Source: a virus | Lineage: Duplodnaviria; Heunggongvirae; Uroviricota; Caudoviricetes | IMG/VR virus record: IMGVR_UViG_2684622619_000023 | Reading direction: 5' to 3' (one strand) | DNA length: 8,430 nucleotides | Shown here: positions 2,736-6,717 of the stretch, in pieces | Layout of the letters: each line of letters begins with the position of its first letter | How positions within the stretch are numbered: position 1 is the stretch's first letter | Position numbers and translations under genes: made by a program | The notes under the pieces: generated by a model | Told to the model about the DNA's origin: nothing | Database searches by the model: none | Seen by the model: only the letters and a program-made list of their open reading frames with translations

Positions 2736-3425
2736 CTATCCATGCTTCCTATACGTCTGCGGCATGCTCCCAATAACTTTCCCGAAGATAAACACCCGGT
2801 TCATCTCGTCTTTCTCGATTGGGTCCCACGGTGAGTAGCTCTTGTTATCAGAGATAACCAGCAGTTTATCCTTCATCATTTGCAGGCGCTTTACATGGGC
2901 TGTGTCGTCGTACAGAAACGCATAGATACCATCACCGTCGAAAGATTTAACCGTGATATCAACGAACAGCAGATCACCAGGTTCAATCGTTCCTGACATG
3001 CTGTCACCGCGTACGTTAATGATGCGGATATTTTCTGCCTTCCTGCCATCGAACATGTGACGAGCATCGTCAAACGAGTACTCAACCGAGCGTAGGACTT
3101 CTACAAACTCACGGTTGATGACACCCGGCCCGGCACTCACTTCTATATCAAGAACGTCAATCTTAAAGTATTTGGAATGGCTGACAGTTGGTTGTATTGG
3201 TTGCACTGTACTGTCTGACATATTTCCAACGCCAGAAGATAACCATTCTGCGCGCACACCCAAAGCGTTCGCGATCTCCACGATTTTAGTTGTTTGATTA
3301 GCTTTCCCTGTTTCGATTTTCTGAATAGCAGCTTGGCTAACCCCGACCAAATCCCCAAGCGCCTTTTGTGTAAGGCCTCGCGCTAATCTGGCTTCTTTAA
3401 GTCTTTCTGAGAGTGTTGTTTTCAT
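2736..3425 (-). CDS. cI: Phage CI-type repressor (XRE-family HTH N-domain + LexA-like S24 peptidase C-domain)
   Basis: 229-aa ORF. N-terminal HTH (LTQKALGDLVGVSQAAIQKIETGK). C-terminal S24 autopeptidase features (GDSMSGTIEPGDLLFVD with catalytic Ser; downstream HVKRL Lys). Divergently oriented from cro across an operator-rich intergenic region. Not lambda-cI-like in sequence, i.e. a different immunity type. Confidence 0.88.
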   Translation of the reverse strand: MKTTLSERLKEARLARGLTQKALGDLVGVSQAAIQKIETGKANQTTKIVEIANALGVRAEWLSSGVGNMSDSTVQPIQPTVSHSKYFKIDVLDIEVSAGPGVINREFVEVLRSVEYSFDDARHMFDGRKAENIRIINVRGDSMSGTIEPGDLLFVDITVKSFDGDGIYAFLYDDTAHVKRLQMMKDKLLVISDNKSYSPWDPIEKDEMNRVFIFGKVIGSMPQTYRKHG

Positions 3426-3529
3426 AGTTCAAATGTACAACCAAGGTTTTATTCCATCAAACGAAAATGGTTGTTGACTAAAAACAACCATAGTTTTAAT
3501 CTTGATTCAAATTAACCACGGAGGTTGTT
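3426..3529. promoter_or_regulatory. Immunity control region: OR operators with divergent PR (rightward to cro) and PRM (leftward to cI) candidates
   Basis: PR: TTGACT 3474-3479, 17-nt spacer, TAATCT 3497-3502, then GGAGG 3520-3524 and cro ATG at 3530. Perfect 9/9 inverted repeat ATGGTTGTT (3467-3475) / AACAACCAT (3483-3491) overlaps the PR -35. Additional half-sites ACAACCA at 3437-3443 and GGTTGTT at 3523-3529. PRM candidate on the minus strand: TTGATG, 17 nt, TACATT, ending about 6 nt before the cI ATG, so cI mRNA may be leaderless as in lambda. Confidence 0.6.
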
Positions 3530-3760
3530 ATGAACCCAGCTATTAAAACAGCGATCAATATCGTTGGTTCACAAAAGAAACTGGGCGCTGCTTGCGAAGT
3601 TTCACAGCAGGCCGTCTATAAGTGGCTTCACAACAAAGCAAAGGTATCCCCTGAACATGTCGGCAGCATTGTTACGGCTACTGGTGGAGTAGTGAAGGCA
3701 CACCAGATTCGCCCGGATCTTCCGAAGTTGTTTCCACACACCGAAAAGAACGCAGCTTAA
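3530..3760 (+). CDS. cro: Cro-like repressor, YdaS-type HTH regulator
   Basis: 76-aa ORF directly downstream of the PR candidate with a GGAGG RBS. HTH-like segment KKLGAACEVSQQAVYKWLHNK. Position and size as for cro; sequence resembles Rac-type YdaS/Cro regulators rather than lambda Cro (from memory). Confidence 0.8.
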   Translation: MNPAIKTAINIVGSQKKLGAACEVSQQAVYKWLHNKAKVSPEHVGSIVTATGGVVKAHQIRPDLPKLFPHTEKNAA

Positions 3761-3772
3761 ATTTCCATTTCA

Positions 3773-3785
3773 CGCTCTTTAACAA
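3773..3785 (+). promoter_or_regulatory. boxA-like element in the nutR position
   Basis: CGCTCTTTAACAA lies 13 nt after the cro stop. It matches the boxA consensus (lambda nut boxA CGCTCTTA; rrn boxA GCTCTTTAACAA). No convincing GC-rich boxB hairpin follows. Confidence 0.4.
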
Positions 3786-3829
3786 TAAGCAATCAACTTA
3801 ACAGTCAATTCAAACTAAAGGAGTCAATT

Positions 3830-4369
3830 ATGCAACCACTTACATACCAACAGACTAGCGGATTTAGCCCGACTGCGGTGATAAATCGTTCTCAAACAAA
3901 ACAGGTGCCAGGCCACGAAAAAATCCGTGATGCCGTCCGCGCCTGGTCGGCTGAAGATAATCAGGATGTCGTTGCCACACTCATTGTGAATGAGTATCGG
4001 GAGCAGGGCGGCGGCACCATCGATTTCCCTGATGATGTCAGCCGTGCACGCCAGAAGCTGTTCCGCTTCCTCGATAACAAATTCGATTCTGAAAAATACC
4101 GAAATAACGTGCGTGAACTGACCCCGGCAATTCTGGCGGTACTACCGCTGGAATATCGCGGTTACCTGGTTGAGCAGGATAGCTTTATGGCTAGGTTGGC
4201 TGAAATGGAAAAGGAACTCAGTGAGGCAAAACAGGCTGTCATTCTCAACGCACCACGCCACCAGAAACTGAAGGAAATTAGTGAAGGTATTGTGTCGATG
4301 TTTCGTGTGGACCCAGATCTGGCTGGTCCACTGATGGCGATGGTCACCACCATGCTGGGGGCAATATGA
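3830..4369 (+). CDS. YdaT-like protein occupying the cII position (function uncertain; regulator or toxin-like)
   Basis: 179-aa ORF with AAGGAG RBS 7 nt upstream. Motifs EYREQGGGTIDFP and LTPAILAVLPLEYR resemble what I recall of the Rac prophage YdaT family, which follows ydaS-type cro genes. Stop overlaps a downstream ATG (ATGA at 4366-4369). Confidence 0.6.
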   Translation: MQPLTYQQTSGFSPTAVINRSQTKQVPGHEKIRDAVRAWSAEDNQDVVATLIVNEYREQGGGTIDFPDDVSRARQKLFRFLDNKFDSEKYRNNVRELTPAILAVLPLEYRGYLVEQDSFMARLAEMEKELSEAKQAVILNAPRHQKLKEISEGIVSMFRVDPDLAGPLMAMVTTMLGAI

Positions 4370-4455
4370 CAGGTTCAGAAATGGCGAAAGCCGGTCTGCT
4401 GGAACAGAACCGACTTTCAGGTGCAAATCGTAACGCACTCATTGCGGGAGGAATT

Positions 4456-5320
4456 ATGGCAAACACTGCTGAGATATTCAATTTTCCAGTGCCGGATGTG
4501 GCACAAAAGGAGCCGCGCGTGGCAGATCTCGATGATGGTTATACGCGCATTGCAAATGAGTTGCTGGAAGCTGTGATGCTGGCCGGATTAACACAGCACC
4601 AGCTTCTGGTCTTCCTGGCTGTCATGCGCAAAACATATGGCTTTAATAAAAAACTGGATTGGGTGAGCAACGAGCAACTTTCCGAATTGACCGGGATATT
4701 GCCGCACAAGTGTTCTGCTGCAAAAAGCGTTCTGGTAAAGCGTGGGATTCTTATTCAGAGCGGGCGGAATACCGGCATTAATAATGTGGTCAGTGAATGG
4801 TCAACATTACCCGAATCAGGTAAGAAAAATAAAGTTTACCTGAAAGAGGTAAATTTACCTGAATCAGGTAAAAAAAGTTTACCCAAATCAGGTAAAGACG
4901 TTTACCCGAATCAGGTAAACACAAAAGACAAAATAACAAAAGACAATATAAAACCTTATTCGTCCGAGAATTCTGGCGAATCCTCTGACCAGCCAGAAAA
5001 CGACCTTCCTGTGGTGAAACCGGATGCTGCGATTCAGAGCGGCAGCAAGTGGGGGACAGCAGAAGACCTGACCGCCGCAGAGTGGATGTTTGANNNNNNN
5101 NNNNNNNNNNNNNNNNNNNNNNNNNNNNNNNNNNNNNNNNNNNTTCCGCTGGGCATGCCAGGACAACTTCTGGTCCGGTAACGTGCTAAGTCCGGCCAAA
5201 CTCCGTGACAAGTGGACCCAACTCGAAATCAACCGTAACAAGCAACAGGCTGGAGTGACAGCCGGAAAATCAAAACTGGACCTGACAAACACTGACTGGA
5301 TTTATGGGGTGGATTTATGA
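4456..5320 (+). CDS. O: Replication initiator protein O (lambda O-like); reading frame interrupted by a 50-nt run of N (5094-5143)
   Basis: ATG at 4456 with GGGAGG 5 nt upstream; N-terminus MANTAEIFNFPVPDVAQKEPRVADLDDGYTRIANELLEA parallels lambda O MTNTAKILNF...VADLDDGYARLSN. After the gap, the frame ending at 5320 gives ...FWSGNVLSPAKLRDKWTQLEINRNKQQAGVTAGKSKLDLTNTDWIYGVDL, matching the lambda O C-terminus. The in-frame ATG at 4366 is an alternative but less likely start. Confidence 0.88.
4807..4956. repeat. Origin of replication (ori-lambda-like) inside the O gene: five 17-bp iterons plus an AT-rich region
   Basis: Iterons TTACC(C/T)(G/A)AA(T/A)(C/G)AGGTAA at 4807-4823, 4836-4852 (degenerate), 4855-4871, 4879-4895 and 4902-4918, each with inverted ends TTACC/GGTAA. 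Followed by the A-rich stretch ACAAAAGACAAAATAACAAAAGACAATATAAAA (4920-4956). Same organisation as lambda ori within the O linker. Confidence 0.8.
5094..5143. other. Run of 50 N (assembly gap or masked bases) inside gene O
   Basis: Directly visible. The O reading frames before and after the run differ by one position, so 50 is not the true missing length. Confidence 0.99.
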
Positions 5321-6018
5321 AAAACATCGCCGCACAAATGGTTAACTTTGACTGTGAGCAGATGCGCCGGATCGCCAACAACATGCCGGAACAGTACGAC
5401 GAAAAGCCACAGGTACAGCAGGTAGCGCAGATCATCAACGGTGTGTTCAGGCAGTTACTGGCAACTTTCCCGGCGAGCCTGGCTAACCGTGACCAGAATG
5501 AACTGAACGAAATCCGCCGCCAGTGGGTTCTGGCTTTCCGGGAAAACGGGATCACCACAATGGAACAGGTTAACGCAGGAATGCGCGTAGCCCGTCGGCA
5601 GAATCGACCATTTCTGCCATCACCCGGGCAGTTTGTTGCATGGTGCCGGGAAGAAGCATCCGTTATCGCCGGACTGCCAAACGTCAGCGAGCTGGTTGAT
5701 ATGGTTTACGAGTATTGCCGGAAGCGTGGCCTGTATCCGGATGCAGAGTCTTATCCGTGGAAATCGAACGCGCATTACTGGTTGGTTACCAACTTGTACC
5801 AGAACATGCGGGCCAATGCGCTGACTGACGCGGAATTACGGCGCAAGGCTGCCGATGAACTGACCTGTATGACAGCGCGAATTAACCGTGGTGAGACGAT
5901 ACCTGAACCAGTAAAACAACTTCCTGTTATGGGCGGTAGACCTCTAAATCGTGCACAGGCTCTGGCGAAGATCGCAGAAATTAAAGCTAAGTTCGGACTG
6001 AAAGGAGCAAGTGTATGA
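5317..6018 (+). CDS. P: Replication protein P (DnaB helicase loader), lambda P-like
   Basis: 233-aa ORF MKNIAAQMVNFDCEQMRRIANNMPEQYDEKPQVQQVAQIING...KFGLKGASV, near-identical to my recollection of lambda P. ATG overlaps the O stop (ATGA at 5317-5320). Confidence 0.95.
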   Translation: MKNIAAQMVNFDCEQMRRIANNMPEQYDEKPQVQQVAQIINGVFRQLLATFPASLANRDQNELNEIRRQWVLAFRENGITTMEQVNAGMRVARRQNRPFLPSPGQFVAWCREEASVIAGLPNVSELVDMVYEYCRKRGLYPDAESYPWKSNAHYWLVTNLYQNMRANALTDAELRRKAADELTCMTARINRGETIPEPVKQLPVMGGRPLNRAQALAKIAEIKAKFGLKGASV

Positions 6019-6317
6019 CGGGCAAAGAGGCAATTATTCATTACCTGGGGACGCATAAGAGCTTCTGTGCACAGGACGTTGCCGCGGTAACAGGCGCAAC
6101 CGTAACCAGCATAAATCAGGCTGCGGCTAAAATGGCGCGGGCAGGAATCCTGGTCGTTGATGGTAAGGTCTGGCGAACGGTGTATTACCGGTTCGCTACC
6201 AGAGAAGAACGGGAAGGAAAGGTGAGCACGAATCTGATTTTTAAGGAGTGTCGCCAGAGTGCCGCGATGAAACGGGTATTGAGGGTATATAAAAGAACAT
6301 CAATGGGTACACAATGA
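6015..6317 (+). CDS. ren: Ren protein (lambda ren-like), divergent C-terminus
   Basis: 100-aa ORF MTGKEAIIHYLGTHKSFCAQDVAAVTGATVTSINQAAAKMARAGILVVDGKVWRTVYYRFATREEREGK... matches recalled lambda Ren. ATG overlaps the P stop (ATGA at 6015-6018). Confidence 0.9.
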   Translation: MTGKEAIIHYLGTHKSFCAQDVAAVTGATVTSINQAAAKMARAGILVVDGKVWRTVYYRFATREEREGKVSTNLIFKECRQSAAMKRVLRVYKRTSMGTQ

Positions 6318-6384: not shown

Positions 6385-6717
6385 ATGAACCCTTATATTT
6401 ATCTTGGTGGTGCAATACTTGCAGAGGTCATTGGTACAACCTTAATGAAGTTTTCAGAAGGTTTTACACGGTTATGGCCATCTGTTGGTACAATTATTTG
6501 TTATTGTGCATCATTCTGGTTATTAGCTCAGACGCTGGCTTATATTCCTACAGGGATTGCTTATGCTATCTGGTCAGGAGTCGGTATTGTCCTGATTAGC
6601 TTACTATCATGGGGGTTTTTCGGCCAACGGCTGGACCTGCCAGCCGTTATAGGCATGATGTTGATTTGTGCCGGTGTGTTGGTTATTAATTTATTGTCAC
6701 GAAGCACACCACATTAA
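6385..6717 (+). CDS. emrE: EmrE, small multidrug resistance (SMR) family efflux transporter, 110 aa
   Basis: From the ATG at 6385 (RBS AGGAAAG 6370-6376): MNPYIYLGGAILAEVIGTTLMKFSEGFTRLWPSVGTIICYCASFWLLAQTLAYIPTGIAYAIWSGVGIVLISLLSWGFFGQRLDLPAVIGMMLICAGVLVINLLSRSTPH, essentially the E. coli EmrE sequence as I recall it; four hydrophobic helices. The 18-codon upstream extension in the track (from 6331) is rejected. Confidence 0.95.
   Translation: MNPYIYLGGAILAEVIGTTLMKFSEGFTRLWPSVGTIICYCASFWLLAQTLAYIPTGIAYAIWSGVGIVLISLLSWGFFGQRLDLPAVIGMMLICAGVLVINLLSRSTPH

Follow-up and report, generated by a model that had tools for sequence, protein, structure and literature searches.

What is an array of short repeats doing in the middle of the coding sequence of a phage replication initiator? 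The question is raised by an 8,430-nt stretch of phage DNA (the window, meaning the whole stretch that was analysed), in which five 17-bp units and an A-rich tract lie within the reading frame of gene O. A preliminary description took this array for an iteron-type replication origin whose repeats double as codons for a repetitive linker in the protein, so that the same letters could be read as binding sites on DNA, as a peptide repeat, or as both. The answer reached here is that a lambdoid prophage replicon very probably has its replication origin at positions 4807-4957, one that would operate in an ori-lambda-like mode, belong to a different specificity class and carry its fifth iteron as an auxiliary element.

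The O gene and its prophage setting

Within a lambdoid prophage, the window represents the early-right region, and contains the following genes and gene parts.

2736-3425, minus strand: S24/HTH repressor
3530-3760, plus strand: Cro-like YdaS-family gene
3830-4369, plus strand: YdaT-family gene in the cII position
4366-5320, plus strand: gene O, replication initiator (Pfam Phage_rep_O, E = 1.2e-34)
4516-4800, plus strand: N-terminal domain of O, presumed to bind the iterons (Phage_rep_O match, residues 51-145 of the ORF from 4366)
4909-5320, plus strand: lambda-homologous part of O (end of the linker and C-terminal domain), presumed P-interaction module
5317-6018, plus strand: gene P, lambda-type DnaB helicase loader and partner of O, intact (full-length profile match to Phage_lambda_P, E = 6.3e-62)
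6015-6317, plus strand: ren
6385-6717, plus strand: SMR transporter, emrE

An origin of this kind is expected to have a helicase-loader or helicase gene immediately 3′ of O, and P (5317-6018) occupies that place. RefSeq relatives have the start of O annotated at the equivalent of 4366; the true start is likely the ATG at 4456, which has a GGAGG 5 nt upstream and aligns with MTNTAKILNF of lambda O. Escherichia coli O157:H7 EC4115 has an identical O gene, annotated there as encoding a “replication protein” of 339 aa, and in relatives O is an uninterrupted frame of the same 339 aa. In the window, O is interrupted by a run of 50 N at 5094-5143, which replaces 115 nt of the identical relatives. Because 50 N stand for 115 nt, the listed O ORF appears to shift frame if the run is taken as length-true. 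The disparity between 50 and 115 nt suggests a nominal gap rather than a deletion.

The state of these genes bears on whether the origin is alive at all. It could be intact in appearance yet inactive, left behind in a decaying prophage without any present function in the genome. A frame shift across the N run, were the run length-true, would fit such decay; so would the EC4115 locus, otherwise identical, in which P is split by IS1203, and the ren-emrE-ybcK neighbourhood, which we take to be that of the cryptic prophage DLP12 in E. coli K-12. P is full length in the window, however, the N run is better read as a gap of nominal length, and viable phages carry the same origin, O and P. Moreover, an origin can fire with O and P supplied in trans. 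Inactivity is, on balance, unlikely.

Scanning 3400-5093 for promoters and terminators returned fewer sites than chance predicts, and no Rfam family, an oop-like RNA for example, was matched in the window. One minus-strand promoter-like site was seen at 4481-4453, roughly at the place of lambda pO. Relatives of O were searched for among solved structures and none was found, and a single-sequence AlphaFold model of its N-terminal domain was unusable (pLDDT 42.6).

Five dyad-symmetric iterons

The pattern TTACCYRAAWSAGGTAA matches five times in the array and nowhere else in the 8430-base window, against a chance expectation of 0.02 matches, and none of 200 dinucleotide-preserving shuffles reaches the observed count, bearing out the repeats first described here. 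Each iteron is a 17-bp dyad-symmetric unit, TTACC-N7-GGTAA, and its arms TTACC and GGTAA are reverse-complementary in all five copies, in agreement with the palindromic ends noted before. An origin of this type is expected to contain at least three to four internally dyad-symmetric iterons of ~18 bp spaced about two helical turns apart, and such a series is present, with start-to-start spacings of 29, 19, 24 and 23. Strand does not apply to the individual units, which are as follows.

4807-4823, iteron 1: TTACCCGAATCAGGTAA; extra upstream copy, 29 bp before iteron 2, without a lambda counterpart
4836-4852, iteron 2: TTACCTGAAAGAGGTAA; variant centre, in register with lambda ITN1
4855-4871, iteron 3: TTACCTGAATCAGGTAA; in register with lambda ITN2
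4879-4895, iteron 4: TTACCCAAATCAGGTAA; in register with lambda ITN3
4902-4918, iteron 5: TTACCCGAATCAGGTAA; in register with lambda ITN4, with lambda homology beginning inside it, at 4909

The whole array, together with the A-rich region that follows it, lies inside the O reading frame, as had been claimed and as the Phage_rep_O match now supports; the repeats begin at 4807, just past the end of that match (nt 4516-4800). There are indeed more iterons than the four of lambda, and the supernumerary copy is the first one, at 4807, a perfect match to the consensus. The copy that the preliminary description called degenerate is a different one, at 4836, which occupies the position of lambda ITN1, and the term is only half apt. 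This copy does differ, but its three differences are confined to the 7-nt centre (AAAGAGG vs. GAATCAG) while both arms are intact, and a variant centre, AAAGAGG or AAAAAGG, is also kept at the iteron 2 position in relatives.

The A+T-rich region and its neighbouring dyad

A further feature expected of such an origin is an A+T-rich, strand-asymmetric region of ~40 bp to the right of the iterons, and one is found directly beside iteron 5. Two elements, again without strand, are distinguished here.

4919-4957 (39 bp): A+T-rich, strand-asymmetric region, presumed DNA-unwinding element, homologous to the 38-bp high-AT region of lambda
4962-4989: weak hyphenated dyad GTCCGAGAATTC / GAATCCTCTGAC to the right of the AT-rich region, complementary at 10 of 12 positions by direct reading

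In the former, 77% of the letters are A or T, and A alone makes up 64% of the top strand; it holds two ACAAAAGACAAWATA direct repeats, and among all 40-mers of the O gene the one beginning at 4922 is the least stable. The region is kept in all relatives, even those with a differing O C-terminus. The A-rich region after the repeats, initially described as “unwinding-type,” is thus confirmed as A-rich, and that wording proves an understatement, in that the region is directly homologous to its lambda equivalent. The dyad at 4962-4989 is the homologue of a better one in lambda and 434 (92% complementarity in the 434 copy). A dyad search at seed 6 detected the 434 copy and did not detect this one in the window, and its membership in the origin is uncertain. 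As a proxy for intrinsic bending, the periodicity of AA dinucleotides (A-tracts) was weak (p ~0.04-0.05 at 11-11.5 bp, uncorrected).

Repeats of DNA or repeats of protein

The iterons had been said to encode a LPESGKK-like repeat. This is true of three of the five: iterons 1, 3, and 4 (4807, 4855, 4879) translate as LPESGK or LPKSGK, but iterons 2 and 5 (4836, 4902) fall in a different frame and yield VYLKEVN and VYPNQVN. The peptide repeat is limited to three copies because the spacings 29, 19, and 23 are not multiples of three. One could still suppose that the repeats are primarily a matter of protein, a flexible LPESGK-like linker with no role as DNA-binding sites, and the three in-frame copies do lie where lambda O has a flexible linker (PMC6022878). 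Such a reading has to contend, beyond the frames and spacings, with the fact that each unit is a palindrome in DNA and that the repeats stand in register with experimentally defined lambda O-binding sites. It must also account for the synonymous third codon positions of the arms, which are invariant across genera.

This last point emerges from a cross-genus conservation set of 12 non-identical loci from nine genera, whose O N-termini are 67-84% identical to that of the window. In the four core iterons, 40 of 40 arm columns are invariant across the 12 loci, 12 of these columns being third codon positions; conservation scores in the same set are 0.91 for iteron centres, 0.72 for spacers and 0.89 for the AT-rich region. 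A parallel pattern is seen within the E. coli type, where third codon positions in 90 distinct sequences from viral contigs score 0.997 in arms, 0.964 in centres and 0.878 in spacers, compared to 0.823 in the O N-terminal domain, values that are descriptive and not probabilities, since the sequences are related to each other. On the combined weight of the frames and the third-codon data, the protein-level explanation was rejected; it is hardly credible. To judge from these patterns of conservation, the repeats act at the DNA level, and the peptide repeat is partial, a by-product of the DNA repeat.

A lambda-type architecture with a different recognition module

When the locus is aligned with lambda ori, iterons 2-5 line up, in register, with the four sites annotated as gpO-binding in phage 434, which has a lambda-type origin. 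Nucleotide homology to lambda (the 434 O gene), at 92%, begins at 4909 and continues through the rest of O into P; to the left of 4909, the lambda alignment shows no nucleotide homology. In tblastn comparisons of the O N-terminal domain, identity is 47% with lambda O and reaches 59% with P22 gp18, the closest named relative. Since lambda homology starts at 4909 and the N-terminus is 47% identical, it follows that the lambda origin architecture and P-interaction module have been joined to a different recognition module. As the alignments have it, this recognition module is the O N-terminal domain together with its iterons, and it differs from that of lambda. Iteron 1 follows the N-terminal domain, which closes with a conserved ...SEW, and precedes the core array. 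The 434 alignment, the annotated rep_origin of P22 and the cross-genus conservation at the DNA level all point to an iteron-type origin embedded in O, as originally proposed. What is gained is a precise annotation of that origin: its iterons, its unwinding element and its module boundaries at ~4806 and ~4909.

If the N-terminal domain recognizes the iterons, then the two should change together. Where the O N-terminus belongs to another class, the dyad is another one too, at 20/24/23 spacing.

P22 and prophages of Pectobacterium and Serratia: TTACC-N5-GGTAA
SEN34: TTAGC-N7-GCTAA
Prophages of Siccibacter, Rahnella, Scandinavium and Tatumella: TTAGCC..AGCTAA
Lambda: TCCCTC..GAGGGA
Phi80-like mEp237: TTCCCG..CGGGAA

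Iteron type co-varies with O N-terminal class, the lambda, P22, SEN34, phi80-like and Aeromonas classes each having a dyad of their own, and this is consistent with the earlier proposal that the iteron sequence goes with the specificity of O. In a protein alignment, the segment LTG(I/M)L(P/S)HKCSAAKSxLV(K/R/S)R is kept in 12 of 12 members of the TTACC-N7-GGTAA class and is different in every other class. Such a class-specific segment fits the variation of O-family proteins with origin-binding specificity (PMC8022706). At the loci L018 and L020, the O N-terminus shares 70-76% identity with that of the window and diverges from it exactly in this segment. Both bear a ~330-nt insertion; no repeats were detected in L020. 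Overall N-terminal identity alone does not predict iteron type, because L018, despite its 70-76% identity, carries different repeats.

Distribution of the origin

Of 5,426 complete E. coli genomes, 2,244 contain at least 80% of a query comprising the O N-terminus plus origin, with up to five matching places per genome. The segment is 100% identical to that of a prophage of E. coli O157:H7 and O55:H7, and a ~98% identical origin is carried by the plaque-forming phages 4A7, Lambda_4C10, 1W, 3W, and Perceval, as well as by several PhiR phages; the 4A7 record has no rep_origin feature. In a scan of one genome per species, the same iteron class was found in prophages of Enterobacter, Klebsiella, Kluyvera, Pseudocitrobacter, Xenorhabdus, Pantoea, and Providencia. 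The five-iteron origin is very common in Enterobacterales prophages, and essentially ordinary. The exact iteron sequence had no match in the literature searched, nor did that search turn up a paper combining “five iterons” with “lambdoid.”

Another suggestion is that the array is a regulatory element for O titration or exclusion, directed against co-resident phages of the same replicon, either besides initiation or in place of it. In addition to the E. coli genomes with up to five places matching the query, two reports describe inhibition of lambda-type replication by cloned lambda iterons (PMC3349717; PMC4488673). Such an effect would nevertheless add to origin function and not replace it. 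Titration as a function of this array seems distinctly unlikely.

The fifth iteron and its copy-number variants

What remains to be accounted for is the upstream copy at 4807. An extra copy at -29 bp is found in relatives from Escherichia, Enterobacter, Klebsiella, and Pseudocitrobacter; those from Xenorhabdus, Pantoea, and Providencia have the four core iterons only, without the upstream copy. In a Kluyvera prophage, a 48-bp unit (spacing 29 + 19) stands three times in tandem and brings the total to nine copies. Copy number was counted in IMG/VR contigs with the last iteron as anchor; 113 of these contigs were usable.

5 iterons, 102 of 113 contigs: spacing 29/19/24/23
4 iterons, 7 of 113 contigs: core array only
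9 iterons, 1 of 113 contigs
7 iterons, 1 of 113 contigs
4 iterons, 1 of 113 contigs: spacing 29/19/23, a core iteron lost (24-bp in-frame deletion in L076)
3 iterons, 1 of 113 contigs: spacing 19/23, a core iteron missing, without the extra copy

Perhaps the origin works with four iterons, and the 4807 copy has no effect on function, having simply been passed down since the O linker underwent an insertion or duplication. This is a real possibility, if somewhat short of an even chance. It would suit the Xenorhabdus, Pantoea, and Providencia relatives, and also the weaker conservation of the extra copy across 44 distinct five-iteron origins, with arms at 0.96 and the centre at 0.83 compared to at least 0.998 for the core arms. 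Its location is congruent as well: 29 bp amount to 2.8 helical turns to the next copy, out of phase with the core spacing of about two turns. Mere descent accounts less readily for a copy with intact arms in 102 of 113 viral contigs, 44 distinct origins and four genera, or for its two third-codon arm positions, which score 0.989 and 0.967, compared to 0.823 in the N-terminal domain. The Stx phages supply an argument for each side, in that their O binds extra iterons weakly and only the four AT-proximal ones efficiently, yet in phage P27 these weakly bound extra iterons are needed for plasmid establishment (PMC7466680). Whether the fifth iteron would be auxiliary or neutral stands at roughly even odds.

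A more specific, and rather doubtful, proposal is that the fifth iteron is a conserved, out-of-phase (29 bp, ~2.8 turns) auxiliary O site by which O-some assembly or the frequency of initiation is tuned, the 48-bp cassette (one copy here, three in Kluyvera) being a copy-variable “dial” for origin strength. Were this true, it would concern a class of replicon that ~40% of complete E. coli genomes contain.

A model for initiation

The mechanism by which this origin would fire is taken from work on lambda (PMC5043065, PMC6022878, PMC3349717), and by that analogy O binding, unwinding, P/DnaB loading and any contribution of the fifth iteron can be set in order. Dimers of the O N-terminal domain would bind the dyad iterons TTACC-N7-GGTAA. 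The four iterons beside the A+T-rich region (4836-4918) would form the core nucleoprotein complex, or “O-some,” in which the DNA is expected to be bent and wrapped. On negatively supercoiled DNA, the O-some would then destabilize the A-rich region next to it (39 bp, 4919-4957). Through its lambda-like C-terminal domain, O is predicted to recruit the lambda-type P, which would carry the host DnaB helicase, and rightward transcription from the early promoter would activate the origin. The fifth iteron (4807), 29 bp upstream, would be an auxiliary O site added by insertion in one sub-lineage.

Comparison with known systems

The closest parallel in layout is ori-lambda itself. In lambda, 434, and 21, four iterons and a 38-bp AT-rich region lie inside O, between the N- and C-terminal domains, and the window has this location in common with them, as well as iterons of ~18 bp with dyad symmetry. 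Its AT-rich region aligns almost base for base with that of ori-lambda, both arrays run straight into AACACAAAAGACA..., the lambda high-AT region, and the DNA of the O C-terminal domain and P is ~92% identical to the lambda type. Core spacing is 19/24/23 in the window compared to 20/24/23 in lambda and 434. The differences lie in the O N-terminal domain and in the iterons: lambda has four of the latter, with arms TCCCTC/GAGGGA, in place of five with TTACC/GGTAA. Membership in the lambda iteron class (TCCCTC-N5/6-GAGGGA) was rejected on the differing arms and the N-terminal domain of 47% identity.

P22 approaches the window from the other direction. Its gene 18, with an annotated rep_origin, contains four iterons (the window has five) at 20/24/23 spacing, and has in common with the window TTACC/GGTAA arms and ACAAAAGACAAT AT-rich repeats. 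The centre of the P22 dyad, however, is 5 nt (TTACC-N5-GGTAA) as opposed to 7 nt, and gp18 pairs with the DnaB-like helicase gp12, whereas the O of the window pairs with a lambda-type P. The P22 gene-18 class was likewise rejected, given the 7-nt centre, the N-terminus of 59% identity and a differing presumed recognition segment.

Phage 82 presents the same layout as the window: its O combines a heterologous N-terminal half with a C-terminal half and P that are compatible with lambda, and the DLP12-type nin region is related to phage 82. The iteron class of the window may be the classical ori82, in which case the finding is already known. A literature search for phage 82 origin data returned nothing relevant within its reach, which stopped short of the phi80/82 origin papers of 1979-1981.

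Plasmid iterons are generally plain direct repeats outside the rep gene, unlike the units of the window, which are palindromes inside the initiator gene. The iteron origins of pSC101, R6K, P1, and F nevertheless resemble the window in that initiator-binding repeats adjoin an AT-rich unwinding region; plasmid iterons bind initiator monomers, and lambda iterons bind O dimers (PMC5043065).

The nearest precedent for supernumerary iterons is offered by the Stx phages 933W and P27. They have six iterons, and, as in the window, the extras lie towards the promoter, at the end of the array away from the AT-rich region, and make the O linker longer. Theirs are lambda-type iterons, however, two of them gained by a 39-bp in-phase duplication (spacing ~20 and 19), whereas the window has one extra copy of another class at 29 bp. 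The Stx six-iteron type, a 39-bp duplication of the iteron 1-2 pair, was rejected for the window on account of its single extra copy at -29 bp. Together, the natural series of 3, 4, 5, 7, and 9 iterons, in which the arms do not vary and the core spacing is constant, provides material to test the effect of iteron number and phasing in lambda-type initiation. It complements the six-iteron work on Stx phages, and leaves the accepted picture of lambdoid replication unchanged.

Variation in iteron number and repeat sequence

Natural variants of the same origin class, differing in iteron number, occur among the related loci compared with the window.

Loci of this origin class that differ naturally in iteron count
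L011 (Kluyvera sichuanensis), 1852-2059: nine iterons, arising from three tandem 48-bp units
L148 (related locus): seven iterons, with altered spacing
L076 (related locus): four iterons, left by a 24-bp in-frame deletion
L078 (related locus): three iterons

Two further loci, L018 and L020 (1501-2259 in each), carry O-like genes whose N-terminal domain is 70-76% identical to that of the window, with divergence from it over residues ~80-115. Both bear an insertion of ~330 nt after the SEW motif that ends this domain. In L018 the repeats also differ, reading TTTCnnCC...GGAAA, and lie directly before a related AT-rich region. The divergence of the L018 and L020 proteins from the window's O may mark the site where iteron specificity is set.

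Integrity of genes O and P

The database-annotated start of O is the equivalent of position 4366, where it overlaps the upstream stop codon as ATGA. Further downstream, ATG 4456 lies 5 nt after a Shine-Dalgarno sequence, GGAGG, and aligns with the start of lambda O; most relatives begin their O at the equivalent of this codon (MANTAE...). The true O is probably a protein of 309 aa rather than 339.

Within the gene, the window holds a run of 50 N at 5094-5143 where identical relatives have 115 nt, and as a result the O reading frame is apparently shifted across this segment. Either the run is a gap or mask of nominal length, or its length is true, in which case the window copy would have suffered a 65-bp deletion and its O would be a pseudogene. 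Gene P is intact in the window, whereas in Escherichia coli O157:H7 EC4115 (L007, 6017-8031) an IS1203 insertion of the IS3 family splits it in a replicon that is otherwise identical; the EC4115 copy is probably defective.

Early control region and flanking genes

The next gene after ren is emrE (6385-6717), a cargo gene encoding an SMR multidrug efflux protein, and in relatives ylcJ and ybcK come next; the ren-emrE neighbourhood presumably resembles that of a DLP12-type prophage. Between cI and cro lies a palindrome with perfect 9-bp arms (3467-3491, ATGGTTGTT-GACTAAA-AACAACCAT), possibly an operator or a piece of the OR region, which a promoter and terminator scan reported as terminator-like on both strands. 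The same scan, which returned fewer promoter-like sites than expected by chance, placed one at 4453-4481 on the minus strand (TTGAAT-17-CATAAT with a TG extension), pointing leftward from just inside O at about the same place as the lambda pO/oop promoter. An Rfam search gave no oop match.

The genes at the cro and cII positions (3530-4369) belong to the Pfam YdaS_toxin and YdaT_toxin families, as in the Rac prophage and unlike lambda Cro and CII. Directly downstream of the cI-like repressor, on the minus strand (1239-2667), two genes code for proteins of 357 aa and 125 aa, the second with an ASCH domain; the pair matches PDC-M11, a candidate defence system in PADLOC (PDC-M11A, E = 2e-133; PDC-M11B, E = 7e-52), and occupies the position that rexA and rexB hold in lambda.
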